Of a stretch of DNA of 64,000 nucleotides, positions 2,581 through 63,104 are shown piece by piece. The stretch lies in sequence record MH051915. The stretch is one strand, 5' to 3'. Source of the DNA: Enterobacteria phage vB_EcoM_IME339. Every line of letters starts with the position of its first letter. The first letter of the stretch is position 1. The notes under the pieces were generated by a model that did no database searches, had not been told where the DNA came from, and saw nothing but the letters and a program-made list of their open reading frames with translations. The position numbers and the translations under genes are program-made.

Positions 2581-3390
2581 TTAGAAACGAGATGCGACTT
2601 TCGCATATACACTTACAATATCTTCTGCACCAGGTGCAGTTTTATCTTCTACAGCTTCAGTGACGAAATTCAGTCCGGCTGCTTCAGTATCAGGAGTATT
2701 TATACCCTCAGTAATAGTGCTTTCATCTTTATTAGACTTCTTCACCATTTCTACGATGGCACTCAATTTACTTGAGAATTCATCTGAATAATCCATACCT
2801 TCGACCAGAGCAGAGACTTTTTCTTTTTGAGACTCAGTCAGATCTTTAGTACTTTCGCTCAATGCCACTTCACGCTGCACATAATTGATATATGCGTCAC
2901 GCTTATTGAGTTCTTCGAACAGACGAGCTGATTCTTCTTTATGTTCTTGCAGCTCTTCTTCCATTTCAGCTACAACATCAACTGATTCTTCTGGAACAAC
3001 AACGTTGTGTTCAACAAAGAGCTCTTTTAATCCACCAAGCATGGATTCAAACAGTTCGGCTTTGATGCCTTTATCAACTGCTAATTTATTTTCGGCGAGC
3101 CATTCTTTCGCAAGATGGTCGATGAATTTAGAAGCTTGCTCAGCGATTTTCTTCTCAGCTTTTTCTTCGGCTTCTTCTTTATTTTTTTCTACTTCTTCTT
3201 CTGCTTTTTCAGCAATTTTAGCGATATGAGATTCAGCTAATTTAACGGCGTGCTGCTTGACGGTAGCTTCGAATACAGTGCCGAAAGTTTCTTTTGCTTC
3301 CGGAGAAATATTAACTGATTCGAAAATACTATCAAGAGCAACGGAAGCATCAATTTTTTGCGCTTCAGCAATCAGTTGTTCTTTAAGCAT
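2581..3390 (-). CDS. 22: Prohead core scaffold protein gp22
   Basis: 269 aa, highly acidic coiled-coil, immediately upstream of gene 23 in T4 order. Confidence 0.9.
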   Translation of the reverse strand: MLKEQLIAEAQKIDASVALDSIFESVNISPEAKETFGTVFEATVKQHAVKLAESHIAKIAEKAEEEVEKNKEEAEEKAEKKIAEQASKFIDHLAKEWLAENKLAVDKGIKAELFESMLGGLKELFVEHNVVVPEESVDVVAEMEEELQEHKEESARLFEELNKRDAYINYVQREVALSESTKDLTESQKEKVSALVEGMDYSDEFSSKLSAIVEMVKKSNKDESTITEGINTPDTEAAGLNFVTEAVEDKTAPGAEDIVSVYAKVASRF

Positions 3391-32276: not shown

Positions 32277-33016
<740 letters not shown>

Positions 33017-33045: not shown

Positions 33046-33333
33046 ATGAAAACTTTCAAAGAATTTACTACAAAAACTACCCCGGTTTCTACTATTACTG
33101 AAGCTACTCTTACTTCTGAAGTTATTAAAGCAAATAAAGGACGAGAAGGTAAACCAATGATTAGTCTGGTTGATGGCGAAGAAATCAAAGGTACTGTTTA
33201 CCTAGGTGATGGGTGGTCTGCTAAAAAGGATGGTGCTACAATCATTATCTCTCCTGCTGAAGAAACTGCGTTGTTTAAAGCTAAACACATTTCTGCGGCA
33301 CATCTCAAGATTATTGCTAAAAATCTTTTGTAA
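33046..33333 (+). CDS. ipI: Internal protein I (IPI; capsid-packaged GmrSD inhibitor)
   Basis: 95 aa; N-terminal capsid targeting sequence MKTFKEFTT...ITE|A; early promoter upstream. Confidence 0.85.
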   Translation: MKTFKEFTTKTTPVSTITEATLTSEVIKANKGREGKPMISLVDGEEIKGTVYLGDGWSAKKDGATIIISPAEETALFKAKHISAAHLKIIAKNLL

Positions 33334-33336
33334 TAA

Positions 33337-33382
33337 ATATTTCACAAAGTTGTTTACATAGGGTTTTAGTTGTGATACTATT
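33337..33382 (+). promoter_or_regulatory. T4 early promoter
   Basis: GTTTAC -35 and TGTGATACTAT extended -10. Confidence 0.6.
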
Positions 33383-33409
33383 ACCCTATCAACTACCGAG
33401 GAGAATAAA

Positions 33410-34367: not shown

Positions 34368-34440
34368 TGGGAATTAGCCAAGTTGGTAAGGCACTGGATT
34401 TTGATTCCAGGATGCAAAGGTTCGAGTCCTTTATTCCCAG
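34368..34440 (+). tRNA. tRNA-Gln (anticodon UUG)
   Basis: Hand-folded cloverleaf: acceptor TGGGAAT/ATTCCCA, anticodon loop TTTTGAT, T-loop GGTTCGAGTCC; no encoded CCA. Confidence 0.85.
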
Positions 34441-34441
34441 C

Positions 34442-34528
34442 GCGAGAATGGTCAAATTGGTAAAGGCACAGCACTTAAAATGCTGCGGAATGATTTCCTT
34501 GTGGGTTCGAGTCCCACTTCTCGCACCA
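34442..34528 (+). tRNA. tRNA-Leu (anticodon UAA)
   Basis: Acceptor GCGAGAA/TTCTCGC, anticodon loop CTTAAAA, long variable arm, encoded CCA. Confidence 0.85.
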
Positions 34529-34533
34529 AATTT

Positions 34534-34607
<74 letters not shown>

Positions 34608-34617
34608 ATTTAATTTA

Positions 34618-34691
34618 CTCCGTGTAGCTCAGTTTGGTAGAGCGCCTGATTTGGGATCAGGAGGTCCAAGGTTCAAATCCTTGTATGGAGA
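34618..34691 (+). tRNA. tRNA-Pro (anticodon UGG)
   Basis: Anticodon loop TTTGGGA, T-arm CAAGG-TTCAAAT-CCTTG; acceptor stem has two G-U pairs, so boundaries are +/-2 nt. Confidence 0.75.
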
Positions 34692-34693
34692 CT

Positions 34694-34783
34694 GGAGGCG
34701 TGGCAGAGTGGTTTAATGCACCGGTCTTGAAAACCGGCAGTCGCTCCGGCGACTCATAGGTTCAAATCCTATCGCCTCCGCCA
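34694..34783 (+). tRNA. tRNA-Ser (anticodon UGA)
   Basis: Acceptor GGAGGCG/CGCCTCC, anticodon loop CTTGAAA, long variable arm, encoded CCA. Confidence 0.85.
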
Positions 34784-34788
34784 GTTTT

Positions 34789-34864
34789 GCTGATTTAGCT
34801 CAGTAGGTAGAGCAACTCACTTGTAATGAGAAGGTCGGCGGTTCGATTCCGTCAATCAGCACCA
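34789..34864 (+). tRNA. tRNA-Thr (anticodon UGU)
   Basis: Acceptor GCTGATT/AATCAGC, anticodon loop CTTGTAA, encoded CCA. Confidence 0.85.
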
Positions 34865-34865
34865 A

Positions 34866-34940
34866 GGCCCTGTAGCTGGAAGGTTCAAGCAAGCGACTCA
34901 TAATCGCCAGATGGTGGTTCAATTCCACCCAGGGCCACCA
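34866..34940 (+). tRNA. tRNA-Ile (anticodon CAU, presumably lysidine-modified to read AUA)
   Basis: Acceptor GGCCCTG/CAGGGCC, anticodon loop CTCATAA, encoded CCA; T4 tRNA-Ile has a CAU anticodon. Confidence 0.8.
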
Positions 34941-34953
34941 AATTAAGAATTAA

Positions 34954-35040
34954 GGGGAGTTATCCCGTAGAGGTAGCGGTGTGGACTGTAAATTCATTGT
35001 CATTGCGACTCGGGTGGTTCGACTCCCATCGGTCCCCCCC
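34954..35040 (+). ncRNA. Candidate small structured RNA between tRNA-Ile and tRNA-Arg (possibly stable-RNA species 1/2-like or a degenerate tRNA)
   Basis: GGGGAGT at the 5' end can pair with ACTCCC near the 3' end; contains GGTTCGACTCC T-loop-like motif and a C7 run; no canonical cloverleaf could be folded by hand. Confidence 0.25.
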
Positions 35041-35045
35041 AATTA

Positions 35046-35121
35046 CGGGGCATAGCTCAGAAGGAAGAGCAAGGACCTTCTAAGTCCTAGGTCGTAGGTT
35101 CGATCCCTACTGCCTCGACCA
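35046..35121 (+). tRNA. tRNA-Arg (anticodon UCU)
   Basis: Acceptor CGGGGCA/TGCCTCG (one G-U), anticodon loop CTTCTAA, T-arm GTAGG-TTCGATC-CCTAC, encoded CCA. Confidence 0.8.
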
Positions 35122-35488: not shown

Positions 35489-35827
35489 GAAACCGGGTCG
35501 CTACCGGTAAGTCGTCGGACTGATGTTCCCTGGGTAAGGACTGGCATTAACAAATCTTTACGATCTGTTAATGTCCCCTTACATCACAGCAGAAACGGCG
35601 CACAGAATTATCGATTCGAGGAAATATCTTTGCCGTAAGCCGAGTAGCGTTTTTGACGGAACGTTCGGATATGGTCGAGATATGGCCTTTTAAAAATATT
35701 GAGTAGCGTCAACTGCTTAATAACCGGGTTCGAATCCCGGCGTTTCGTACAAACACTTGCCTTAGCAGGTGGAACCCCGACAAGGTTGCCGCAAGGCTTA
35801 GCCCCGACCGAAAGGTTGGGGCTTTTT
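35489..35827 (+). ncRNA. ORF-free structured region; candidate non-coding RNA(s) ending in an intrinsic terminator
   Basis: No ORF of 60 aa or more on either strand; local hairpins (ACCGG-7nt-CCGGT at 35492-35508); canonical tRNA T-arm CCGGG-TTCGAAT-CCCGG at ~35724-35740; duplicated GAGTAGCGT motif; terminator 35801-35827. Confidence 0.3.
35801..35827 (+). terminator. Rho-independent terminator
   Basis: GCCCCGACC-GAAA-GGTTGGGGC stem-loop followed by TTTTT. Confidence 0.75.
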
Positions 35828-35829
35828 AG

Positions 35830-35837
35830 TATAAATA
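35830..35837 (+). promoter_or_regulatory. T4-type late promoter (TATAAATA) for the internal-protein-like gene
   Basis: Exact TATAAATA ~40 nt upstream of ATG 35878. Confidence 0.6.
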
Positions 35838-35877: not shown

Positions 35878-36351
35878 ATGAAATCATATGCTCAATTTTT
35901 AAATGAAGCGGTGTTAAATGAAGCATCTAGCACCGAAATTCAAGCTGTCGCAAAAGCAGCCATTGCAGCGGGTAAATATTCCTATAAAGATGCTTCTGAC
36001 GAATCACGATTCCAATTTGCTCGCGACATGAAAGCAGAAGGATTTACGGGAAATGCAGTTAGTATGGCCTGGAAAAGTTTAGTTGCTACTGGCGCTGCTT
36101 TTGCAAAGGCTTCGGGTAAACCTGCTCCTAAAGCAGATCCTAAAGCTGCACAAGAAAAAAATATCGTTAAAGGAATTATCTCTAAATATGAAGCTATCCT
36201 TAAAGAGCTTTTAGTAATCAAAACCGAAGGCCAAAAGCTAGCCCGTGCTTATAGTTTCAAAGATAATCCGCATGTTCACTCTCTTGAGTATGTTGAAGAC
36301 ATCCAAAAAATTATTAAAGACCGCATTTGGTCTGCTAAACAAATCAAATAA
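35878..36351 (+). CDS. Internal-protein-like capsid-targeted protein (IPII/IPIII-type leader), function unknown
   Basis: 157 aa; N-terminus MKSYAQFLNE|A matches the T4 capsid targeting sequence and gp21 cleavage motif (L-x-E); Ala/Lys-rich; late promoter upstream; terminator downstream. Confidence 0.75.
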   Translation: MKSYAQFLNEAVLNEASSTEIQAVAKAAIAAGKYSYKDASDESRFQFARDMKAEGFTGNAVSMAWKSLVATGAAFAKASGKPAPKADPKAAQEKNIVKGIISKYEAILKELLVIKTEGQKLARAYSFKDNPHVHSLEYVEDIQKIIKDRIWSAKQIK

Positions 36352-36358
36352 CATTCTT

Positions 36359-36386
36359 AACCCCAGCCGAAAGGTTGGGGCTTTTT
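36359..36386 (+). terminator. Rho-independent terminator
   Basis: CCCCAGCC-GAAA-GGTTGGGG stem-loop plus TTTTT; near-duplicate of the terminator at 35801. Confidence 0.75.
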
Positions 36387-36504
36387 GGTATCTAGGCCTT
36401 TCTGGACCTCTCTAGTCATCATTTGGTTTATACCCTTTATAATATATTATCCTATCTTTTAATTGCCCCTCCCTGCCCTAGAATTCCCTAAAACTTTTTA
36501 AAAA

Positions 36505-36552
36505 ATTTTTCACAAAACGGTTTACATCTCTGTTCTTCCATGGTACTATACA
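36505..36552 (+). promoter_or_regulatory. T4 early promoter (-35 GTTTAC, extended -10 TGGTACTATAC) with AT-rich UP element
   Basis: Matches T-even early promoter consensus; block nearly identical to those at 51660 and 53105. Confidence 0.7.
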
Positions 36553-36592
36553 ACTATCAACTACTGATACAGAAAACAACTTGGAGAATGAA

Positions 36593-36856
36593 ATGGATAA
36601 TTACGGCGAACTGTTCAACTTCTTTATGAAATGCGTTTCAGAAGATTTCGGTCGTACAGTGAATGATATTAAAGTTATCGGTCCTGATCATCCGATGTTT
36701 GAAACTTACGCAGTAATGGGTAATGAAGATGGTCAGTGGTATACTGTAAAGGTTGTGATTAACATGTTTACAGCAGAAGGTTATGTTAAACTGTCTTCTA
36801 AAGTTTACCACGATAACGACGAAATCGCAGAAGAATATTTCAATAATATGAAATAA
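36593..36856 (+). CDS. Hypothetical protein
   Basis: Track start 36581 is TTG; moved to ATG 36593 (MDNYGELF) with GGAGA RBS; 87 aa. Confidence 0.55.
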   Translation: MDNYGELFNFFMKCVSEDFGRTVNDIKVIGPDHPMFETYAVMGNEDGQWYTVKVVINMFTAEGYVKLSSKVYHDNDEIAEEYFNNMK

Positions 36857-36911
36857 GTTTACACAGGCTCATGATTGAGATATTATGAGCCTGTAACTTG
36901 AGGAGAACATA

Positions 36912-37310
36912 ATGAATATTGAAGATAAAGAAATGCGAGAGTTATATAATTCATTAACACCCGAACAACAAAAAGCTGCCAAAGAATTAGAGAAAGCTCT
37001 TAGTTTAAGCTTGACAAAAACTGATTGGGCCGCCGTGTATGAAGAAAAAATGAGGTCTGAAAATGAAGCTATCGAGAGAAATGAATGGATTGTAAACACC
37101 AAGATTAGTTCTGATGGCTGCTCTGTTGAGGTGTCAGCTGTAGTTAAAGGTACTCATGGCGAAGAATCATGGGGCTGGCATAATGAGGCAAACAAATATA
37201 TTGTTCTCTCAACGTCAAAAACTTATGGTCAAAAGGTTCCTGTATCCAAAGCTATTATTAAGCAAGCTCAATGGGAAGCCAATGAAATCTGTCTCGCAAA
37301 AATGAAATAA
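36912..37310 (+). CDS. Hypothetical protein
   Basis: 132 aa; GAGGAGAACATAATG RBS. Confidence 0.55.
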   Translation: MNIEDKEMRELYNSLTPEQQKAAKELEKALSLSLTKTDWAAVYEEKMRSENEAIERNEWIVNTKISSDGCSVEVSAVVKGTHGEESWGWHNEANKYIVLSTSKTYGQKVPVSKAIIKQAQWEANEICLAKMK

Positions 37311-40252: not shown

Positions 40253-40818
<566 letters not shown>

Positions 40819-43949: not shown

Positions 43950-44411
43950 ATGACTATCAACACAGAAGTTTTTATCCGTCGAAATAAGCTCCGTCGTCAC
44001 TTTGAGTCGGAGTTTCGTCAAATTAACAATGAGATTCGTGAGGCATCAAAAGCAGCAGGGGTCTCATCGTTTCATCTAAAATATTCTCAACATCTTCTTG
44101 ATCGTGCAATTCAACGGGAGATTGATGAGACATATGTTTTTGAATTATTCCACAAAATAAAAGACCATGTTTTAGAAGTTAATGAATTCCTGAGTATGCC
44201 TCCACGCCCTGATATTGACGAAGATTTTATTGATGGTGTTGAATATCGTCCTGGGCGTTTAGAAATCACAGATGGAAATCTTTGGCTTGGATTTACAGTT
44301 TGTAAACCTAATGCGAAGTTCAAAGACCCGTCGCTTCAATGCAGGATGGCAATTATCAACAGTCGTCGTTTACCGGGAAAGGCTTCTAAGGCAGTAATTA
44401 AAACTCAATGA
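43950..44411 (+). CDS. regB: Sequence-specific endoribonuclease RegB
   Basis: 153 aa; MTINTEVFIRRNKLRRHFESEF N-terminus and length match T4 RegB. Confidence 0.85.
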   Translation: MTINTEVFIRRNKLRRHFESEFRQINNEIREASKAAGVSSFHLKYSQHLLDRAIQREIDETYVFELFHKIKDHVLEVNEFLSMPPRPDIDEDFIDGVEYRPGRLEITDGNLWLGFTVCKPNAKFKDPSLQCRMAIINSRRLPGKASKAVIKTQ

Positions 44412-46180: not shown

Positions 46181-46350
46181 ATAGTTCTGAGTTACAGTAT
46201 GAAGTGTTACGTGAGCTTGATAATTTAATTGAACTCGCTGTCAATAAAGGTTTTGCCATTGGAATCGGTCAAAAAGATACTGGTCATTTAACTATGGAAA
46301 TATTTAAGCAAAAGCGAATTATTTTAAAACTCCTGGAAATTAATATATGA
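46177..46350 (+). CDS. Hypothetical small protein (57 aa, below the ORF-track cut-off)
   Basis: ATGA overlap with upstream stop, and its own stop overlaps the next start; fills an otherwise uncoded gap. Confidence 0.4.
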   Translation: MNSSELQYEVLRELDNLIELAVNKGFAIGIGQKDTGHLTMEIFKQKRIILKLLEINI

Positions 46351-46532
46351 GTCTGAGTAAAGAACAAAAAGATAAATTGTTTGAGCTTATCCATGAACTT
46401 CTAGATGAGCATACAGAAGCAAACACCTTTTATGATGAATACGGCCCGCTATCTCCCGAACAGCAAGAAGAATTTGCTGATCGGTTTGATAAGAAAGAAA
46501 ACGAATTAATAGCTTATGTGAATACGCTTTAA
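46347..46532 (+). CDS. Hypothetical protein
   Basis: 61 aa acidic ORF immediately upstream of tk. Confidence 0.5.
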   Translation: MSLSKEQKDKLFELIHELLDEHTEANTFYDEYGPLSPEQQEEFADRFDKKENELIAYVNTL

Positions 46533-48071: not shown

Positions 48072-48096
48072 AGTCTCCTTCGGGAGACTTTTTTCA
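48072..48096 (+). terminator. Rho-independent terminator
   Basis: AGTCTCC-TTCG-GGAGACT hairpin followed by TTTTTT. Confidence 0.7.
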
Positions 48097-48099
48097 TTT

Positions 48100-48136
48100 T
48101 ACCGGTTTACTTTCCATTTGAGCTGTGATACTATAC
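48100..48136 (+). promoter_or_regulatory. T4 early promoter
   Basis: GTTTAC -35 and TGTGATACTATAC extended -10, directly after the terminator. Confidence 0.65.
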
Positions 48137-48162
48137 AACCATCGGATAAAGAGGAGAACATC

Positions 48163-48351
48163 ATGAAAATTGAAGCACTTAATCAAGAAGGAAATATCTA
48201 CGTCATCATTAATGGTGATTTTTTCGTCGACATGGATGAAGTTACTAGTGAAGAACTTGTAGAACTTCTTAAGAAACGCTATGATATGTGTGATGAAGCT
48301 GCAACTCATATGGCGTGTGCAATATTCTCTCTTTCATATGTGGTGGAATAA
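48163..48351 (+). CDS. Hypothetical small protein
   Basis: Track start 48118 is TTG inside the promoter; moved to ATG 48163 (MKIEALNQ) with GAGGAG RBS. Confidence 0.5.
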
Positions 48352-49624: not shown

Positions 49625-50146
49625 ATGTTTATTTCAAGTGGAAGTGGTTTAATTCGTGTTGAATTTAAAAATGACATCTTCCTTATTCAAGGAGACGATA
49701 TTATTAAAATGAGTTATGATGAAATTAAGAAAATTTGTAATGCTCTTGAAAATCATGGAAAGGTGAATGCTGTCATTGATATTGGCGATTTATGGGTGAC
49801 ACTTTATGAAGTATCCGAAGGATTTAACATTGAAGATGAAAACAACATCTTAGCTATTGATAAAAGAAGCGATTTGTTTGATGTGTTAAAAGTTTATGAA
49901 CAGTCAAACGGTGGAAGAAAAGCTGCATTGATTTATCAAAAACCACATTCATGTGGAACTGCTTCAATTATTTCAGATATTGAAGATGAAACTGATACTT
50001 ATATGTGTATTTTAAAAGCTGGTGGTGACCGTCATCCGGATTTTATTTCTATTCGTCAAAACAATGGAGAAATTTCATTATCAAAATCAGAAGCTGAAGC
50101 TATGATTAAGTATTTAACAACTGTTACACCTTCAATGAAAGGATGA
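49625..50146 (+). CDS. Hypothetical protein, paralogue B
   Basis: 173 aa; C-terminus KSEAEAMIKYLTTVTPSMKG parallels the previous ORF. Confidence 0.55.
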   Translation: MFISSGSGLIRVEFKNDIFLIQGDDIIKMSYDEIKKICNALENHGKVNAVIDIGDLWVTLYEVSEGFNIEDENNILAIDKRSDLFDVLKVYEQSNGGRKAALIYQKPHSCGTASIISDIEDETDTYMCILKAGGDRHPDFISIRQNNGEISLSKSEAEAMIKYLTTVTPSMKG

Positions 50147-50616
50147 TTATAATTATGGTTATTAATGAAAACTCTTGGCATTATAAATTATTCAAAATGT
50201 TTAACGACGAATGGAAACGACCTAAGACACTGTGCGCGTATTTTTGGTCTATTGTTATCCCTACATTTTTCGTTTCTTTATTCGGATGTACTATGCTCGC
50301 AGGTCTAACTATTATCTGCGCAGAAATCATACAGAAATGGCTTATTTTTGGTAGTTTATGGACTCTTATTCCATCAGCATTTATACTTGCCATTTTGCTT
50401 GTTTTACTTATTATTGGTTCATTTGTTATTCCTGCACAACTGCATGAAAAATATAAAGATTATAAATGGAAAAAGGATTATGCTTTACATGTAGAAAATA
50501 TTGATAGGGCGTATAAAGGTTTACCTCCTATTCAACCCAAGAAATCTATTATCGTCGAATTTTTAAAAGCGCGCAAAGCTAAAGTATGTCCTGTTATTGA
50601 ATATAAGGCTGAATGA
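50143..50616 (+). CDS. Integral membrane protein (hypothetical)
   Basis: 157 aa with 3-4 hydrophobic helices; ATGA overlap. Confidence 0.55.
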   Translation: MIIIMVINENSWHYKLFKMFNDEWKRPKTLCAYFWSIVIPTFFVSLFGCTMLAGLTIICAEIIQKWLIFGSLWTLIPSAFILAILLVLLIIGSFVIPAQLHEKYKDYKWKKDYALHVENIDRAYKGLPPIQPKKSIIVEFLKARKAKVCPVIEYKAE

Positions 50617-51626
50617 TGAAAACAGTAATGAAAAGCTATTTTGGTAGTCATCTTTATGGAACTTCTACTCCAGAATCTGATGTAGATTTTAAAGAAATCT
50701 TTGTTCCTCCTGCTCGCGATATTCTTATCGGAAATGTTAAAGAGCATATGAGTAAAAACACTAACAACACATCATCTAAAAACACTAAAGATGATATTGA
50801 CCACGAACTATACAGTCTTAAGTATTTCTTTAAATTAGCAGCAGATGGTGAAACTGTAGCATTGGATATGCTCCACACTCCACCTGAACTTGTAGTTAAA
50901 TCTGATTTGCCTGATGTATGGAAGTTTATTCAAGATAATCGTTCTCGTTTTTATACGACTAACATGAAATCCTATTTAGGGTATGTTCGCAAGCAAGCTT
51001 CTAAATACGGTGTTAAGGGTTCTCGTTTGGCCGCATTACGTGATGTATTGAAAGTAGTTAATCAAATCCCTGAGCAATGGGTTGATTACCAAGAAGACGG
51101 CTCCATTAAGCAGCGTCGCACTAAAGTTGAAGATATTAAGCATCGTCTTCCAGAGAACGAATTCTGTGAATGGGTATTCCATAATCATGAGAAAACAGGT
51201 CCACAAACGTTCTACACTGTGTTGGGTCGTAAATATCAAACAACGCTTTCTCTTATTGAGCTTAAGCAGTCACTGAATAAATTAGATGCTGAATACGGCG
51301 AACGTGCTCGTAAGGCTGAAGCGAATGAGGGCATCGACTGGAAAGCTCTGAGTCATGCTTGTCGTGGTGGACTCCAACTATTGGAAATTTACAAAACTGG
51401 TGACTTAGTCTATCCACTTCAAGACGCTCCATTTATTCTCGACGTGAAGTTGGGTAAACATCCATTTAAAACTGTTCAAGAGTTTTTGGAAGATGTGGTC
51501 GATCAAGTAGAAGCAGCATCCATTGAAGCTTCTAAGAACGGTATGCAGCAAAAAGTAGACATGGGTTTCTGGGATGACTTCCTTGAGAGGGTTTATCTTG
51601 AAAACCATCGAAGTTATTATAAATGA
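50613..51626 (+). CDS. Predicted nucleotidyltransferase (Pol-beta-like fold), nrdC.11-like by position
   Basis: 337 aa; N-terminal YFGSHLYGTSTPESDVDFKEIFV fits the G[GS]x(9-13)DxD nucleotidyltransferase motif. Confidence 0.65.
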   Translation: MMKTVMKSYFGSHLYGTSTPESDVDFKEIFVPPARDILIGNVKEHMSKNTNNTSSKNTKDDIDHELYSLKYFFKLAADGETVALDMLHTPPELVVKSDLPDVWKFIQDNRSRFYTTNMKSYLGYVRKQASKYGVKGSRLAALRDVLKVVNQIPEQWVDYQEDGSIKQRRTKVEDIKHRLPENEFCEWVFHNHEKTGPQTFYTVLGRKYQTTLSLIELKQSLNKLDAEYGERARKAEANEGIDWKALSHACRGGLQLLEIYKTGDLVYPLQDAPFILDVKLGKHPFKTVQEFLEDVVDQVEAASIEASKNGMQQKVDMGFWDDFLERVYLENHRSYYK

Positions 51627-51628
51627 TA

Positions 51629-51654
51629 GGGAGCCTTCGGGCTCCCTTTTTTAT
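51629..51654 (+). terminator. Rho-independent terminator
   Basis: GGGAGCC-TTCG-GGCTCCC hairpin followed by TTTTTTATTT. Confidence 0.8.
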
Positions 51655-51659
51655 TTCAA

Positions 51660-51712
51660 AATTTTTTCACAAAACGGTTTACAAGCATAAAGCTTTATGG
51701 TACTATACAACT
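51660..51712 (+). promoter_or_regulatory. T4 early promoter
   Basis: GTTTAC -35 and TGGTACTATAC -10; near-identical to the block at 36505. Confidence 0.7.
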
Positions 51713-51740
51713 ATCAACTGATACGGATTTGGAGAATAAA

Positions 51741-52709
51741 ATGAAAACTGTAACTATCAATAAGGGTATCTACTTCGGTAAAGAAATCTCTGGAACTTTT
51801 GAGCTCTTAGGCGAATGGTTCCCAGATAATGCTCCGGTAGATGCACAAGGAGATGGTAAAGTTTTTGTTGAAATTGACGGTAAACGTCGCGGTGTTTGGG
51901 TTTACAAATCAGATATTTCATATGATGGTGTAAAGGTTGAAGAAGTTAAAGAATCGTATGAAGATATGAAAACCCGCATTAATAAAAGATTTAATGTTAT
52001 GGGAATGATGACGAATGGTATTATTAATGGAAATATTCGTTCATTAATTATCTCTGGCGCAGCAGGTATTGGTAAAACGTATTCTTTAGATAAAGCTTTG
52101 AATAAAGCAAATGATATTGGATACATTGAATATAAAAGCATTAATGGTAAAATCTCTGGTATTGGTCTTTATGAGCAGCTTTGGAATAATCGTGAAGAGA
52201 ATTCTGTCCTTTTGATTGATGATGTGGATGTTTTCTCTGATATGGACATTCTTAATCTTCTAAAAGCCGCTCTGGACACCGGAGAGACCCGTAAAGTCTG
52301 CTGGAGCACTGCGTCTTCTTACTTAGAAGAAAAAGGCATTGAGCGTGAGTTTGAATTTAAAGGAACGATTGTTTTTATCACAAACGTTGACATTGACCGC
52401 GAATTAGACCGTGGTACTAAACTTGCTCCACACTTACAAGCATTAGTGTCCCGCTCGGTTTATTTAGATTTGGGTGTTCACACTAATGAAGAAATTATGG
52501 TCAGGGTTGAAGATGTTATTCTTTCAACTGACATGATGCAAAAGCGCGGTCTTTCTGATGAAGAAACTTATAAAGCATTATCATGGATGAAAGTTAATGT
52601 TAATCGTTTACGCAATGTTTCACTGCGTACTGCTCTTTATCTTGCTGACTTTATTATGACCGATAAAAACGGTTGGGAAGAAATCGCTGAGGTTACTCTT
52701 CTGAAATAA
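51741..52709 (+). CDS. AAA+ family ATPase (hypothetical), nrdC.10-like by position
   Basis: Track start 51729 is TTG; moved to ATG 51741; Walker A GAAGIGKT, Walker B LLIDDVD. Confidence 0.7.
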   Translation: MKTVTINKGIYFGKEISGTFELLGEWFPDNAPVDAQGDGKVFVEIDGKRRGVWVYKSDISYDGVKVEEVKESYEDMKTRINKRFNVMGMMTNGIINGNIRSLIISGAAGIGKTYSLDKALNKANDIGYIEYKSINGKISGIGLYEQLWNNREENSVLLIDDVDVFSDMDILNLLKAALDTGETRKVCWSTASSYLEEKGIEREFEFKGTIVFITNVDIDRELDRGTKLAPHLQALVSRSVYLDLGVHTNEEIMVRVEDVILSTDMMQKRGLSDEETYKALSWMKVNVNRLRNVSLRTALYLADFIMTDKNGWEEIAEVTLLK

Positions 52710-52810
52710 TTCATAAGAGGACTTCTATGACAAAAAGGCAGTTCAGAAATAGATTATATGGACTGCCATTAAAAAGATGACTAGAATTAAACTGGTGAAT
52801 GGAGGTAGTG

Positions 52811-53113
52811 ATGTTATACTCAAAGGCTCGTGAAATTTACGAAACTAAAATTAAAGAAGCAGTATTTCAGTTCGCAACGACAATGCGATGGACAAATGAC
52901 TGGGAGTATTCAAAAAATCATAAGAAGCCCATGGTGACAAGAAAGGCTCATATGTTAGTGTTAATAGACCGTGAGCAGATTAAAGCCCGAGAAGCCCTCC
53001 AGAATCATAAAAAGGCTGCCTTTGAATGGTTTATGGATAACACTGCTCCTGAGACCAAGAAAGCGGTAAGTGCATGGTTCAGTGGAAAAAATTGTGAAAG
53101 AAGTTTCTTTTAG
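52811..53113 (+). CDS. Hypothetical protein
   Basis: Start moved to ATG 52811 (MLYSKAREIY) after GGAGG RBS; 100 aa. Confidence 0.5.
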   Translation: MLYSKAREIYETKIKEAVFQFATTMRWTNDWEYSKNHKKPMVTRKAHMLVLIDREQIKAREALQNHKKAAFEWFMDNTAPETKKAVSAWFSGKNCERSFF

Positions 53114-53148
53114 TGGTTTACAAGACTGTTCCTCTGTGGTACTATACA
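53105..53148 (+). promoter_or_regulatory. T4 early promoter
   Basis: GTTTAC -35 and TGTGGTACTATAC -10; same leader block as at 36505 and 51660. Confidence 0.7.
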
Positions 53149-53173
53149 ACTATCAACTACGGAGGAACACAAA

Positions 53174-53701
53174 ATGAACGCTAAAGATATTTTCAACTTG
53201 GTAAATTACAACGATGGTAAATTTAAATCTGAAGCGCAAAGCAAGTTCTTTAACGACATCTCAATCGGAGGTGAAATCACTGTTGATGGAGGACAAATTT
53301 ACAAATCCCGTTGGAATTGGATCGTTATTATTGATGAGATCGGTATTGTAGAAATTTACAAAAATACGAATAAAAATCGTACATTGCACTGGTCTCGTGA
53401 TACTAACGAACAGTACAAAAAGGATAAAGCATCTAAATTATCTCGTGTAACTCAAGAAGATATTGAGTTCATCAAGAAAGATATTTTAATGTATGATAAT
53501 TTAATTGCTGAAGAGCAAGCTGTTATTGATAAATTTGACGAGATTAAAGCTTCTCGTGAAATTCCTGATTTTATGAAAGAATCGGTAAATGAACGATACA
53601 CTCTCATTTCAGAGCGTATTGAAACTTACAAAAAGCAAAGAGCTGAACGCCAAAATACTCTTCGGAAGTTTGAAGAACGGTTAAAGACGGTACTCGCATA
53701 A
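53174..53701 (+). CDS. Hypothetical protein
   Basis: 175 aa; GGAGGAACACAAAATG RBS. Confidence 0.55.
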   Translation: MNAKDIFNLVNYNDGKFKSEAQSKFFNDISIGGEITVDGGQIYKSRWNWIVIIDEIGIVEIYKNTNKNRTLHWSRDTNEQYKKDKASKLSRVTQEDIEFIKKDILMYDNLIAEEQAVIDKFDEIKASREIPDFMKESVNERYTLISERIETYKKQRAERQNTLRKFEERLKTVLA

Positions 53702-53756
53702 CCGCTTTATACCAAGGATGGTATAATGGTTCTAAGCCCTTTTAATTGAGATTATT

Positions 53757-54164
53757 ATGAAACAGTTGATAATTAAAAGATTGAATTTATTGATATGTTG
53801 TTTATGTGTAGTAGTTGCATATGGTTATTACGCAATTAATGATTATATGCATTATAAAGATTATGATGTTACTGTAGTTAATACCATTACAGGAACACAA
53901 GGAAAAGGGTCTAGTTTATCGTTTATTGCCGTATATGAACTCAAAGATGGTTATAGATTTGGTGAATATATTTCCCCAGAGATGTATTCTTCAATAGAAA
54001 AAGGTGATAATATTACTGTAAGTTTACGTCCTTTCGACGTAAAACAGACATGGTTTGATAATATTGTTTGGTTCTTTGGAATGGTATTAGTTCAATCTGT
54101 GTGTGGTGCTTATATAGTCTGTTCCATCTTATTCTGTATATTTAGTAAAATTGAAATTGAGTGA
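53757..54164 (+). CDS. Membrane protein (hypothetical)
   Basis: 135 aa with N- and C-terminal hydrophobic helices. Confidence 0.55.
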   Translation: MKQLIIKRLNLLICCLCVVVAYGYYAINDYMHYKDYDVTVVNTITGTQGKGSSLSFIAVYELKDGYRFGEYISPEMYSSIEKGDNITVSLRPFDVKQTWFDNIVWFFGMVLVQSVCGAYIVCSILFCIFSKIEIE

Positions 54165-54229
54165 GGAAAATATGTCAGTAGTAATTAATAATGTCAATGC
54201 AGTAATTAAATCTTTAGTTAATAAAAAAA

Positions 54230-55063
54230 ATGATGAATGAATGGACTGTATTTCGTCGTGGAGAGCCAGATAAATTTTTTCATAGATTTAACCCAACTTT
54301 GGATTTGAATGTTATCGACAGAGATGTTCATGCTGAAATTTTAGATAAGTTTAAAGTTGATATTGGATTTGGATTAGAAAAACATTTACAGCGAACAAAT
54401 GGATCTGGAATGAGTTTATCTAATCGCATTATGAAAGCCCTTAATAAAATTGGAGCGTTGTCTCGTATTAACGCGAGTGAAATTCTTCGTAATTATAATA
54501 AAGGATATGACCTTTATGGTCGACTAATGCCGAAGTTATCATTTGACCAAATGATTGCAGATTTGTGGGAAAATCAAAGACGATTATTAGCATTAGGCGC
54601 TCGATTAGCTAAAGGTCTAGATAAACAAATGATTTTTAAGACCAATAATACAGAAGACCTTAAATGCTTTAAATTTAGTATTCGTGGAGATGATTATTAC
54701 ATCAGAGCTCACTCTACAGATTATGTTAATATGGGTCATCATCTCTGTTTAGCTTTTGAAGTTTTAAAAGAAGCTGGAACATTAGAATATTCATCTGGGG
54801 CAAAATGTCCTATTGGTTCAAGTTGTATTTTAATTTATCGCCCGGATGAATCCAGTTCAACTACATTGCCTACGAAACCTGTACCAGTTCGTAGTAACGA
54901 AAAACATTCTGAACAAATTGATTATTTTAATAAACAGATTGAAGAGCTGAATATTTCTATTCAACAATATGACGATGAAATTTTCAGACTATCTGGATTG
55001 AGTAGTAAAGCTAAATCTGAGCGTGAAAAGTTAATTAAAATCGTTGATTTACTTAAATCTTAA
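54230..55063 (+). CDS. Hypothetical protein, member 1 of a four-gene paralogue family with C-terminal coiled coil
   Basis: 277 aa; shares the internal motif (W/F)xxQ(R/L)xL(L/K)xxAxRL and a C-terminal heptad-rich tail with the next three ORFs. Confidence 0.6.
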   Translation: MMNEWTVFRRGEPDKFFHRFNPTLDLNVIDRDVHAEILDKFKVDIGFGLEKHLQRTNGSGMSLSNRIMKALNKIGALSRINASEILRNYNKGYDLYGRLMPKLSFDQMIADLWENQRRLLALGARLAKGLDKQMIFKTNNTEDLKCFKFSIRGDDYYIRAHSTDYVNMGHHLCLAFEVLKEAGTLEYSSGAKCPIGSSCILIYRPDESSSTTLPTKPVPVRSNEKHSEQIDYFNKQIEELNISIQQYDDEIFRLSGLSSKAKSEREKLIKIVDLLKS

Positions 55064-57211: not shown

Positions 57212-58141
57212 ATGAAAACTCGTAAACATTATATTGATTATTTTGACAGTCTTATTACTAAACACCGTAATTATCAGATCGGACACAGAGCAGTAATCAA
57301 TAATATTCTTCGTGATTTCCTTCAATATGTTGGCCAGGAAAATCATATCTGTAAAGATACTCAAAACGCTTATTCTCATTCGTTAGGCAATTTGCTTGAA
57401 TGGTTTAAACGTTCTCGTATGTTATCTTCTACTGTAGCTCGCGATAACATTAAAAACTTTATGAAGCCAAGCTTCATTAAATCTGCGACATCTATAACCG
57501 ATTTGGTTGAATTTACTATTGTTAACGATGTTAAAAAGACCCATTTAGCCGATTGGTTATCTACCATTCCTGAAACTAAATTTGCTGATAAATTTGCTTG
57601 TCAGTTCAATGACCAAGTGAATATGCTTTTTAAGCATGCTCGCAAACTATTTACCGCAGGCGATGACCGTACAAATACAGTTCATGTTAAGGATTGGGTT
57701 ATTGCTGATGAAGTAACACACAAGCCAGGTGGTTCATCAGTGGTAATTAATATCCAAGTTCCTTATTATTACTCACGTAATCTTGGCACCATGAACTCTA
57801 AAGAAATTAATAAGCACAACAAAACTATTCGTTCGTTGTCTTATAAACTCCGCATGATGTTAAAAATCATGGACGTAGTAGAAATGTATGACGAAATCGA
57901 AGATAATGGTTCAATGTTATACAGTTCACGTATTCTAATTAAACTGAAGAACCCTAATACATATAAGACAGTTGTAAAAGAGCCTAAAGTAGAAAAAATT
58001 GATAACTTGAGCGAAGAACGTGAATATCTCAATGCTCGTTTGATTGAAGTTGAAGCCCAGATTGCCGAACACACCAAATTGTTAAAAGCTCTTAATGCAA
58101 AAGCAAATGGTTTACGTAATGCTATTGAGGTATTGAAATGA
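57212..58141 (+). CDS. Hypothetical protein, paralogue family member 4
   Basis: 309 aa; N-terminus MKTRKHYIDYF parallels member 2 (MKTRSQIEDM); C-terminal coiled coil. Confidence 0.6.
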   Translation: MKTRKHYIDYFDSLITKHRNYQIGHRAVINNILRDFLQYVGQENHICKDTQNAYSHSLGNLLEWFKRSRMLSSTVARDNIKNFMKPSFIKSATSITDLVEFTIVNDVKKTHLADWLSTIPETKFADKFACQFNDQVNMLFKHARKLFTAGDDRTNTVHVKDWVIADEVTHKPGGSSVVINIQVPYYYSRNLGTMNSKEINKHNKTIRSLSYKLRMMLKIMDVVEMYDEIEDNGSMLYSSRILIKLKNPNTYKTVVKEPKVEKIDNLSEEREYLNARLIEVEAQIAEHTKLLKALNAKANGLRNAIEVLK

Positions 58142-60823: not shown

Positions 60824-62637
60824 CAATTGAAAAAGAAATTGAAGGATTGATTCATAAAACTAATAAAGACCTTTTGAACGAGAATGCTAATAAAGATTCT
60901 CGTGTTTTTCCAACTCAACGGGACCTTATGGCTGGTATTGTGTCTAAACACATTGCCAAAAATATGGTCCCGTCTTTTATTATGAAAGCGCATGAAAGCG
61001 GAATTATCCATTTCCATGATATTGATTATTCCCCTGCTCTTCCATTTACTAATTGCTGTTTAGTAGATTTAAAAGGAATGCTTGAAAACGGATTTAAGCT
61101 CGGTAATGCGCAGATTGAAACTCCTAAATCAATCGGCGTTGCTACTGCAATTATGGCACAAATTACTGCACAGGTTGCTTCCCATCAATATGGCGGAACG
61201 ACTTTTGCGAATGTAGATAAAGTACTTTCTCCTTATGTTAAACGCACCTATGCAAAACATATTGAGGATGCAGAAAAATGGCAAATCGCTGATGCGTTGA
61301 ATTATGCCCAATCTAAAACAGAAAAAGACGTATACGATGCATTCCAAGCTTATGAATATGAAGTAAATACTCTCTTTAGTTCAAATGGACAAACGCCTTT
61401 TGTAACAATTACATTTGGTACGGGAACTGACTGGACTGAACGAATGATTCAGAAAGCAATTCTGAAAAATCGTATTAAAGGCCTTGGCCGTGATGGAATA
61501 ACTCCTATTTTCCCTAAGCTTGTTATGTTCGTTGAAGAGGGTGTCAATCTTTATAAAGATGATCCGAACTATGATATTAAGCAGCTTGCGTTAGAATGTG
61601 CAAGCAAAAGAATGTATCCTGATATTATTTCAGCTAAGAACAATAAAGCTATCACCGGTTCATCTATTCCTGTTTCTCCAATGGGTTGCCGTAGTTTCTT
61701 AAGCGTATGGAAAGATTCGACTGGTAATGAAATTCTTGATGGACGTAATAATCTCGGTGTTGTAACACTGAATCTTCCTCGCATTGCGTTAGATTCTTAT
61801 ATTGGAACACAATTCAATGAACAGAAATTTGCCGAATTGTTCAATGAACGAATGGATTTGTGTTTTGAAGCTTTGATGTGTAGAATTAGTTCCTTAAAAG
61901 GAGTTAAAGCGACCGTTGCTCCTATTCTTTACCAAGAAGGTGCATTCGGGGTTCGTCTTAAACCTGATGACGACATAATTGAGTTATTTAAAAACGGTAG
62001 AAGTTCAGTGTCCCTAGGATACATTGGTATTCACGAATTGAATATTCTTGTCGGTCGTGATATTGGACAGGAAATTTTGACTAAAATGAATGCTCGTCTT
62101 AAACGGTGGACTGAAAGAACCGGTTTTGCTTTTAGCTTGTATTCTACTCCTGCTGAAAACCTGTGCTATCGCTTCTGTAAACTTGATACTGAAAAATATG
62201 GAAGTGTAAAAGATGTTACTGATAAAGGCTGGTACACTAATAGTTTCCATGTTTCAGTAGAAGAAAATATTACTCCGTTTGAAAAGATTTCTCGCGAAGC
62301 CCCATATCATTTCATTGCGACAGGTGGTCACATTTCTTATGTTGAACTTCCTGATATGAAAAATAACTTAAAAGGTCTTGAGGCTGTATGGGATTATGCT
62401 GCACAACATTTAGATTATTTTGGTGTTAACATGCCAGTAGATAAATGTTTTACATGTGGAAGTACCCATGAAATGACTCCTACTGAAAACGGATTTGTTT
62501 GTTCTATTTGTGGAGAAACTGATCCTAAAAAGATGAATACGATAAGAAGAACTTGTGGTTATTTGGGAAATCCGAACGAACGCGGATTTAATCTCGGCAA
62601 AAATAAAGAAATCATGCATAGGGTTAAACACCAATGA
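60820..62637 (+). CDS. nrdD: Anaerobic ribonucleoside-triphosphate reductase NrdD
   Basis: 605 aa continuous ORF; C-terminal zinc ribbon CFTCGSTHE...CSICG and glycyl radical motif RTCGYLG; no intron interruption. Confidence 0.95.
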   Translation: MTIEKEIEGLIHKTNKDLLNENANKDSRVFPTQRDLMAGIVSKHIAKNMVPSFIMKAHESGIIHFHDIDYSPALPFTNCCLVDLKGMLENGFKLGNAQIETPKSIGVATAIMAQITAQVASHQYGGTTFANVDKVLSPYVKRTYAKHIEDAEKWQIADALNYAQSKTEKDVYDAFQAYEYEVNTLFSSNGQTPFVTITFGTGTDWTERMIQKAILKNRIKGLGRDGITPIFPKLVMFVEEGVNLYKDDPNYDIKQLALECASKRMYPDIISAKNNKAITGSSIPVSPMGCRSFLSVWKDSTGNEILDGRNNLGVVTLNLPRIALDSYIGTQFNEQKFAELFNERMDLCFEALMCRISSLKGVKATVAPILYQEGAFGVRLKPDDDIIELFKNGRSSVSLGYIGIHELNILVGRDIGQEILTKMNARLKRWTERTGFAFSLYSTPAENLCYRFCKLDTEKYGSVKDVTDKGWYTNSFHVSVEENITPFEKISREAPYHFIATGGHISYVELPDMKNNLKGLEAVWDYAAQHLDYFGVNMPVDKCFTCGSTHEMTPTENGFVCSICGETDPKKMNTIRRTCGYLGNPNERGFNLGKNKEIMHRVKHQ

Positions 62638-63104
62638 ATTATGATAGATTTTATCCTTGCGATTTTGTGAATGGCCCTGGATGCAGGGTCGTTCTTTTCG
62701 TTACAGGTTGTTTGCATAAATGCGAAGGGTGTTATAATAAATCAACATGGAATGCTAGAAATGGCGTTCCATTCACTGGTGAAACACTGGAACAATTAAT
62801 TGAATGTTTGAATAATGATTATATAGAAGGATTAACTATAACTGGAGGAGACCCTCTCTATCCTGATAACCGAGATGTTATTCACTCTGTGGTTCAAACA
62901 GTAAAAAATCTTTATCCAAATAAAAGCATTTGGTTGTGGACAGGATATAAATTTGAAGATATTAAACAACTAGAAATGCTTAAATATGTTGATGTTATTA
63001 TTGATGGGAAGTATGAGAAAAATCTTCCTACCAAAAAGCTGTGGCGAGGATCAGATAATCAGCGACTTTGGTCAAATACCGATGGGGTGTGGAAACATGA
63101 TTAA
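62634..63104 (+). CDS. nrdG: Anaerobic RNR activating enzyme NrdG (radical SAM)
   Basis: 156 aa; cysteine cluster CLHKCEGCYN; ATGA overlap with nrdD. Confidence 0.9.
   Translation: MNYDRFYPCDFVNGPGCRVVLFVTGCLHKCEGCYNKSTWNARNGVPFTGETLEQLIECLNNDYIEGLTITGGDPLYPDNRDVIHSVVQTVKNLYPNKSIWLWTGYKFEDIKQLEMLKYVDVIIDGKYEKNLPTKKLWRGSDNQRLWSNTDGVWKHD

Follow-up and report, generated by a model that had tools for sequence, protein, structure and literature searches.

Early-promoter cassettes of the T4-like phage vB_EcoM_IME339 and a variable junction between nrdC.11 and nrdC.10

Background

The closest described counterparts of the elements considered here are the PeSLs, which were defined in phages RB49 and phi1 by Arbiol et al. 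2010 (PMC2839356) as composite units of about 100 bp joining a promoter to a stem-loop, and for which exchange between flanking units, with excised mini-circles, was proposed. In that work the elements of the T-even phages were regarded as analogues, not homologues, of the RB49 PeSLs; repeated promoter/leader elements at the T-even internal-protein (IP) loci had been described by Repoila et al. 1994, as related in the same paper. The concept was extended to T4/PST by Comeau, Arbiol & Krisch 2014 (PMC4122927), where these PeSLs cluster in hyperplastic regions and near indels; according to a figure legend of that paper, PST PeSLs lie at ~50-51 kb, in the nrdC.8-nrdC.10 region, and the 50-52 kb of PST that the legend names corresponds to the nrdC.8-nrdC.11 cluster. 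A review by Hinton calls the T4 early promoters "uber" promoters of the UP/-35/TGn/-10 kind and notes additional consensus regions.

We present an analysis of such elements in 64,000 nucleotides of Enterobacteria phage vB_EcoM_IME339 (MH051915), a stretch hereafter called the window, to which coordinates refer unless another genome is named. It follows up an earlier note in which repeated blocks of this stretch had been taken for PeSL-like cassettes of T4-type phages, a reading with which the published T4/PST consensus and architecture agree. Judged by their sequence, the repeats of this T4-like phage appear to be early promoters with their terminators and leaders, all of them already known from annotation and published as PeSLs. 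The finding is correct but ordinary and holds little that is new, the elements having been in the T4 annotation since the 1990s and the shuffling idea having been published in 2010 and 2014. What we offer is a refinement of the published idea, in that the junction nrdC.11/nrdC.10 emerges as a hot spot of insertion with several alleles among about 530 Tequatrovirus genomes, the neighbouring cassettes being fixed.

A T4-like early region with annotated elements

Comparison of 50000-55000 with hundreds of Tequatrovirus (T4-like) genomes gave 97-98.5% identity, in agreement with a 25-kb query, and the window as a whole is a Tequatrovirus mosaic that is about 95-97% identical to T4 and carries other indels than T4. 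Its + strand from ~32 to 64 kb corresponds to the T4 early region, in the order 57B-ip-tRNA-e-denV-vs-regB-tk-rI-mobD-nrdC-49-nrdD-nrdG, gene names being taken from relatives with T4-style naming (ime09, RB32 and T4). The 51.6-kb cassette sits between nrdC.11 (50613-51626) and nrdC.10 (51741-52709), and from the nrdC.11 stop to the nrdC.10 start 139 of 139 nt are identical to T4. At this very site the 1990s T4 record in GenBank (U76612) annotates a terminator and a -35 and -10 labelled "early promoter 54.4", which the IME339 cassette resembles in everything; the same record also annotates a -35/-10 before nrdC.8 (window 53116). The nrdC.10 product itself gives sub-threshold matches to P-loop NTPases (AAA_14, AAA_22, nSTAND3) over residues ~96-203.

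Architecture of the cassettes

All parts of the 51.6-kb cassette lie on the + strand. Directly after the nrdC.11 stop codon (TGA, 51624-51626) comes a putative intrinsic terminator (51628-51653), also a terminator in U76612, in which the stem AGGGAGCC/GGCTCCCT encloses a TTCG loop (51628-51647) and is followed by a T-run; the GC-rich UUCG-tetraloop stem, with T6 behind it, folds with -16.4 kcal/mol (z -3.67). The AT-rich UP-element stretch TTTTTATTTCAAAATTTTTTCACAAAACG (51648-51676), common to the T4 motA and frd.3 copies, leads into the core early promoter, T4 'early promoter 54.4' (51677-51706), with a -35 GTTTAC at 51677-51682, a spacer, a TGn at 51698-51700 and a -10 TACTAT at 51701-51706. 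Within the leader (51707-51740), ACAACTATCAACT would span the transcription start, which is expected ~7 nt past the -10, near A51713, in the conserved CTATCAA. The Shine-Dalgarno (SD) region GGAGAATAAAA (51731-51741) runs into the nrdC.10 start codon at 51741.

Three sister cassettes on the same strand repeat this plan in varying degrees. A paralogue upstream of e.8 (36499-36595) has a UP element, a -35 at 36520-36525, a TGG/-10 at 36541-36549, the shared leader and an ATG at 36593; folding of 36455-36520 gave no stem-loop belonging to it, and the nearest hairpin is about 140 nt upstream. The paralogue upstream of nrdC.8 (53095-53176; -35 at 53116-53121, -10 at 53140-53145, ATG at 53174) has its UP region within the 3' end of nrdC.9, and a hairpin directly upstream of it was sought by folding and not found; an inverted repeat (53127-53171) instead pairs its spacer with the SD region across the -10 (-19.6 kcal/mol, z -5.7). 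A weaker family member upstream of mobD.5 (48072-48165) combines a UUCG terminator (48072-48089), a -35 at 48105-48110, a -10 TACTAT at 48129-48134, the leader ACAACCATC and an ATG at 48163, the terminator being a GC-rich UUCG-tetraloop stem followed by T6 (-10.8 kcal/mol, z -4.2).

The earlier note had several of the blocks preceded by GC-rich hairpin terminators. This holds for 51628-51647 and 48072-48089, where strong UUCG terminators are predicted, a GC-rich stem-loop and a U-run after a stop codon (z <= -3.7) fitting the usual description of rho-independent terminators; these two hairpins are also the strongest +-strand terminator-like sites of their neighbourhood. It does not hold for 36520 and 53116. 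A promoter with an adjacent or overlapping stem-loop is thus present at 51628/51677, at 48072/48105 and at 53116, by virtue of the inverted repeat across its -10, and absent at 36520.

In all four cassettes a -35 GTTTAC(A/T) and a -10 TAnnnT stand at T4 spacing, the -10 is extended (TGG at 36541, 51698 and 53137, TGA at 48126), AT-rich tracts lie upstream, and an SD and ATG follow 24-40 nt downstream. Three read TTTACA-N17-TACTAT and the fourth TTTACT-N17-TACTAT, in accord with the T4/PST PeSLs (PMC4122927), which likewise join an AT-rich region, TTTACW-N17-TAYWAT, a stem-loop just upstream and a 3' SD with a start codon. They depart from those PeSLs in that the cassette at 36520 is without a stem-loop and those at 48105 and 53116 are without an indel in the sampled genomes. 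The difference from the RB49 units is greater, since the latter use canonical TTGACA/TATAAT boxes with polyG/polyC stems mostly between or overlapping them, whereas the window has the -35 GTTTAC and upstream UUCG terminators.

The primary role of the cassettes is regulatory. We propose that the rho-independent terminators at 51628 and 48072 would insulate each unit from upstream transcription, the former probably stopping nrdC.11 transcripts, as the T4 annotation also has it. Identity to a named T4 early promoter suggests that the very strong UP/-35/TGn/-10 promoter recruits the host sigma-70 polymerase at time zero, and the short conserved leader would span the start site. As the GGAG Shine-Dalgarno fits a target of the RegB RNase, matching the strong RegB/S1 consensus GGAGRAYARAA at 11 of 11 positions in the 51.6-kb cassette (51731-51741), the message would be made at once and probably inactivated by RegB cleavage within minutes. 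Matches at 10 of 11 positions occur at 36583-36593 and at the SD of regB itself (43940; regB, 43950-44411). Across the whole window such motifs are not above chance (15 vs 10.7 expected), and their placement at start codons is suggestive.

Probable common descent of the repeats

Self-comparison places 36490-36567, 51647-51724 and 53086-53163 in one repeat family with 71-74% ungapped identity over 78 nt, with weaker members at 48103-48143 and 33322-33399. Every block located by the earlier note is present, but its description of them as near-identical over ~70 nt overstates the degree of likeness. One 21-mer, GGTACTATACAACTATCAACT, is present in three exact copies (36542, 51699 and 53138) against 0.00 expected from 100 shuffles. 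A generic sigma-70 scan showed no excess over shuffles (79 vs 76; 62 vs 58) and is therefore uninformative; only the T4-specific pattern discriminates, GTTTAC-N18-TANNNT being found at 14 sites against 0.91 expected, all on the + strand of the early region from 32.9 to 63.9 kb.

Such likeness might be ascribed to the functional consensus of strong T4 early promoters alone, with neither shared descent nor a role in recombination. T4 early promoters are indeed known for extended consensus regions, and identity within the trio is concentrated in the -35, the TGn/-10 and the start region: in fixed register the three copies agree fully (100%) at the -35, at the -10 and over the 13 nt that follow it, and nowhere else, with values of 28-60% for the UP region and 39-67% for the spacer. 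However, these 13 nt are not shared by the other promoters of the window, which match there with a mean of 0.44 and a maximum of 0.69 as against 1.00 within the trio.

The paralogues of T4, obtained by listing all GTTTAC-N18-TANNNT sites of the full genome as assembled from an unannotated record, contradict that account. About nine of them form a subfamily which, by the T4 annotation, precedes e.8, mobD.5, nrdC.10, nrdC.8, imm.1, ndd.6, ndd.4, motA and frd.3, and which is thus dispersed, as are PeSLs, over hyperplastic (early, non-essential) parts of the genome, here those around e, mobD, nrdC, imm, ndd, motA and frd. Its members have in common the core TGGTACTATACAACTATCAAC, plus the whole leader down to the ATG in various combinations. 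In a gapped alignment the 15-nt spacer AAGCATAAAGCTTTA is the same in the nrdC.10 and frd.3 copies, and the spacer AAGACTGTTC(Y)TC is common to the imm.1, ndd.4 and nrdC.8 copies, even though spacers are not contacted sequence-specifically. Leaders of about 30 nt are shared in a different, mosaic pattern, TACTGATACGGATTTGGAGAAT(R)AAATG linking the imm.1, ndd.6, nrdC.10 and e.8 copies and TA(Y)GGAGGAACA(S)AAAATG those of nrdC.8 and ndd.4; the hairpin, T-run and ATTTTAAAAATTTTTTCACAAAACG in turn are common to the motA, frd.3 and nrdC.10 copies. Shared spacers and leaders that contacts with RNA polymerase do not demand argue for common descent with exchange of sub-segments. The blocks appear more alike than generic promoter consensus requires, as the earlier note had expected of a self-alignment, and consensus alone, which also sits ill with the cassette duplications that flank the junction inserts described below, is so improbable an explanation that we give it almost no weight.

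We therefore favour a different reading, which we hold to be very probably right: the cassettes are orthologues of T4 immediate-early expression cassettes, a paralogue subfamily with exchanged sub-segments whose members double as homology patches, as the PeSL model has it. A search with the 89-nt cassette matched 544 records at 3220 places in all, or about six for each genome, almost all of them in Tequatrovirus; on this reading the roughly 6-9 copies in each Tequatrovirus genome would descend from a common ancestor and have exchanged hairpin/UP, spacer and leader segments. As a by-product, their conserved blocks of 20-50 nt would offer short homology patches to the T4 system, which recombines very readily. 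Less than 50 bp of homology is reported to suffice for T4 recombination (PMC2839356), so these blocks could double as linkers for the gain and loss of modules. A short match that had raised the possibility of cassette transfer into a T5-like phage (111-kb record UoN_LDJ77_1) was rejected, the record being an incomplete Tequatrovirus and the match an ordinary paralogous copy. A cassette fragment does occur outside the Tequatrovirus set, in the 158-kb Salmonella phage STML-198 (NC_027344), where 89265-89311 matches window 51696-51742 over 47 nt with 95.7% identity (-10, leader, SD and ATG) as the only match to the region.

An insertion hot spot at the nrdC.11/nrdC.10 junction

The junction was surveyed in a systematic sample of the 529 records that match window 51250-52150, which comprised 54 full-length genomes. 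Extra DNA lies between nrdC.11 and nrdC.10 in 22 of these (about 41%), in size classes of about +262 bp (6 genomes), +430 (2), +480 (8), +620 (4) and +1100 (2), and we read the structure of the inserts in one or two representatives of each class. T2, BW-1 and G29 carry an ORF of 486 nt between two copies of the hairpin, UP and -35. In vB_SsoM_113 a 49-aa ORF and a DUF4031 ORF have TTGGRGAATAAAATGAAAACT on both sides, and the insert brings with it a second promoter, of the ip-locus type. Ge15 has a 66-aa ORF joined directly after CTATCAA, a joint that is also present in G29, and ZN18 carries cargo of the vB_SsoM_113 type with half of the hairpin and the UP/-35 deleted. Both modules are stacked in G29 and SYGD1, which places three promoters in a row. 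The junction is thus a true shuffling site, with at least five different inserts bounded by duplicated parts of the cassette.

Against Pfam and PHROGs the cargo ORFs matched DUF4031 and families of unknown function only. A PHROG assignment of the T2 ORF as 'RNA polymerase ADP-ribosylase' is not trusted, as it is a tail-end match to profile positions 1275-1424 of 1480.

Position by position, the single cassette of the window equals the left copy of T2 through the hairpin and the right copy from the -35 onward, with the switch within a ~25-nt AT-rich stretch common to both T2 copies; 51648-51676 is the crossover interval, where one of the copies on either side of the T2 insert gives way to the other. 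This configuration matches exactly what was seen between RB49 and phi1, where one phage has an ORF between two units and the other has in its place a single chimeric unit with the crossover in the AT-rich region (Arbiol Fig. 3). We propose that in the relatives the homology patches at this junction have repeatedly allowed small ORF modules to be inserted, deleted and stacked.

The concentration of alleles at one place, including the stacked modules of G29 and SYGD1, when similar cassettes nearby are inert, could also speak for a protein-directed mechanism, be it a site-specific recombinase or a nuclease recognising GGGNCC hairpins or CTATCAA, with nrdC.11/nrdC.10 as an integron-like attachment site; Arbiol et al. 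indeed speculated on a recombination protein that binds stem-loops (PMC2839356). Yet the joints fall in three different conserved blocks and not at one fixed position, the low homology requirement reported for T4 recombination speaks against the need for such a protein, and the homing endonucleases of the region are at other junctions. This mechanism strikes us as very unlikely. The comparison with integron cassettes, or with lambdoid 'morons', is apt in so far as small self-expressed modules gather at permissive intergenic sites, up to three being stacked in G29; unlike integron cassettes, they are not known to come with an integrase or an attC-like site, and it is the regulatory sequences that serve as linkers. 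That the cassette is more than a passive homology patch, namely a preferred, possibly protein-targeted, integron-like landing site that captures and stacks self-expressed ORF modules, similar cassettes 1.5 and 3.5 kb away being inert, is a long shot. The alleles of this junction form a natural series that can be used for an experimental test of PeSL-mediated exchange.

Conserved neighbours and the distribution of breakpoints

Neither the nrdC.9/nrdC.8 cassette (53116) nor the rI.-1/mobD.5 cassette (48105) carries an insert in any of 40 sampled genomes each, and the sole indel in their vicinity consists of a seg-like homing-endonuclease gene that separates nrdC.10 from nrdC.9. The cassette at 36520 is never interrupted in relatives; the places where homology is lost there are the hairpin repeat 36356-36391 and the promoter that follows, 36856-36916. 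Immediately after the four cassettes come e.8, mobD.5, nrdC.10 and nrdC.8, all of which are present in T4, T2, RB32, ESh26 and ime09 with 95-99% identity. A hot spot at one cassette junction beside fixed neighbouring cassettes means that a cassette is not sufficient for plasticity, and genes beside cassettes are not to be assumed recent acquisitions. Modular gene shuffling, as invoked in the earlier note, is thus borne out at nrdC.11/nrdC.10 but not at 48105 and 53116, and its corollary that the flanked genes are the ones most likely to have been recently exchanged finds no support, in view of the conservation of the downstream genes in all five relatives, the two invariant junctions and the breakpoint statistics.

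In the panel formed by these five relatives, junction zones make up 26% of the sequence and hold 69 of the 80 breakpoints (p~1e-29). Promoter-bearing junctions have a breakpoint in 7 of 12 cases and other junctions in 21 of 52, a difference that is not significant in this panel (Fisher p=0.34), and many of the indels are accounted for by homing-endonuclease genes or are found at cassette-free junctions. Since breakpoints are as frequent at promoterless junctions, the cassettes are one route among several, the others including homing endonucleases and exchange at promoterless junctions.

These figures lend some weight to the view that the cassettes are cargo rather than cause, that is, that illegitimate or microhomology recombination at gene boundaries, followed by selection for viable genomes, moves modules that happen to bring their own promoter. 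The two cassette junctions that do not vary across about 500 genomes (40 sampled for each) agree with it, as does the ragged deletion in ZN18. On the other hand, the copy in the window and T4 is a clean left/right chimera that switches within the ~25-nt AT-rich interval, as would be expected of homologous exchange; the three distinct joints are confined to the three conserved blocks; and at least five alleles and stacking at one site contrast with none at the neighbouring ones. We regard the cargo view as unlikely and retain the reading of the cassettes as expression units that double as homology patches.

Two copies of a 36-nt terminator-hairpin direct repeat with a GAAA loop, at 35797-35832 and 36356-36391 (+ strand), flank an ORF at 35878-36351, the right copy being 130 nt upstream of the cassette at 36499 and a recurrent homology breakpoint in relatives. 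This ORF, a homologue of RB32ORF133c, is absent from T4 and T2, which keep a single copy of the repeat, and is a clean repeat-mediated indel in which no promoter is involved. The 36-nt repeat had been remarked on by the annotators of RB32; a search of 33.9-36.7 kb against Rfam for the hairpin repeats as known RNAs returned 8 tRNAs only. The eight tRNA genes form a T4-type tRNA region (34368-35118) between the ip/tRNA.x genes and the hairpin-flanked ORF, and their content varies among relatives.

Further variation in the early region

T2, RB32 and ESh26 have other sequence in place of the ip slot of the window (33046-33333), which the promoters at 32986 and 33352 enclose, and the breakpoints of this replacement fall within the two cassettes, in the manner of the IP-locus elements. 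A promoter of the 33352 type also travels with the insert of vB_SsoM_113, ZN18 and G29 at the nrdC.10 junction. The IP-type promoters differ from the trio at 36520, 51677 and 53116 (the TGGTACTATACAACTATCAACT subfamily) in their leader and in the inverted repeat that surrounds their -10. A slot at the e.7 position (36912-37310), between the promoters at 36857 and 37314, holds a rare allele of a PHROG family of unknown function that ESh26 has and T4, T2 and RB32 lack; of 40 sampled genomes only 1 shows homology that reaches into the slot.

Homing endonucleases are linked to differences at 49625-50616, 52690-52716, 61355 and 62634-62654. Two ORFs stand in place of T4 mobD, the seg-like gene between nrdC.10 and nrdC.9 is found in RB32 and several others, and the window has neither mobC nor the T4 nrdD intron with I-TevII. 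Elsewhere genes that every relative has differ sharply as alleles: nrdC.3 is ~70% identical to T4/T2/RB32 and 97-98% to ESh26/ime09, 46347-46532 is ~68% identical to T4/T2/RB32, and nrdG is 79% identical to T4. The alleles concerned (57212-58141, 46347-46532 and 62634-63104) appear to reflect mosaicism by allelic replacement and not by indel.

In seven of 13 early promoters (-35 at 32986, 33352, 36857, 40788, 43893, 48896 and 53116) the -10 lies between the arms of a strong inverted repeat, with minimum free energies of -13 to -21 kcal/mol and z of -3 to -7.7. At 40788, 43893 and 53116 the 3' arm covers the Shine-Dalgarno, so that read-through RNA would hide the SD and RNA from the local promoter would not. 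The stem at 36857 differs from that of its T4 orthologue by a compensated C-G to T-A change.
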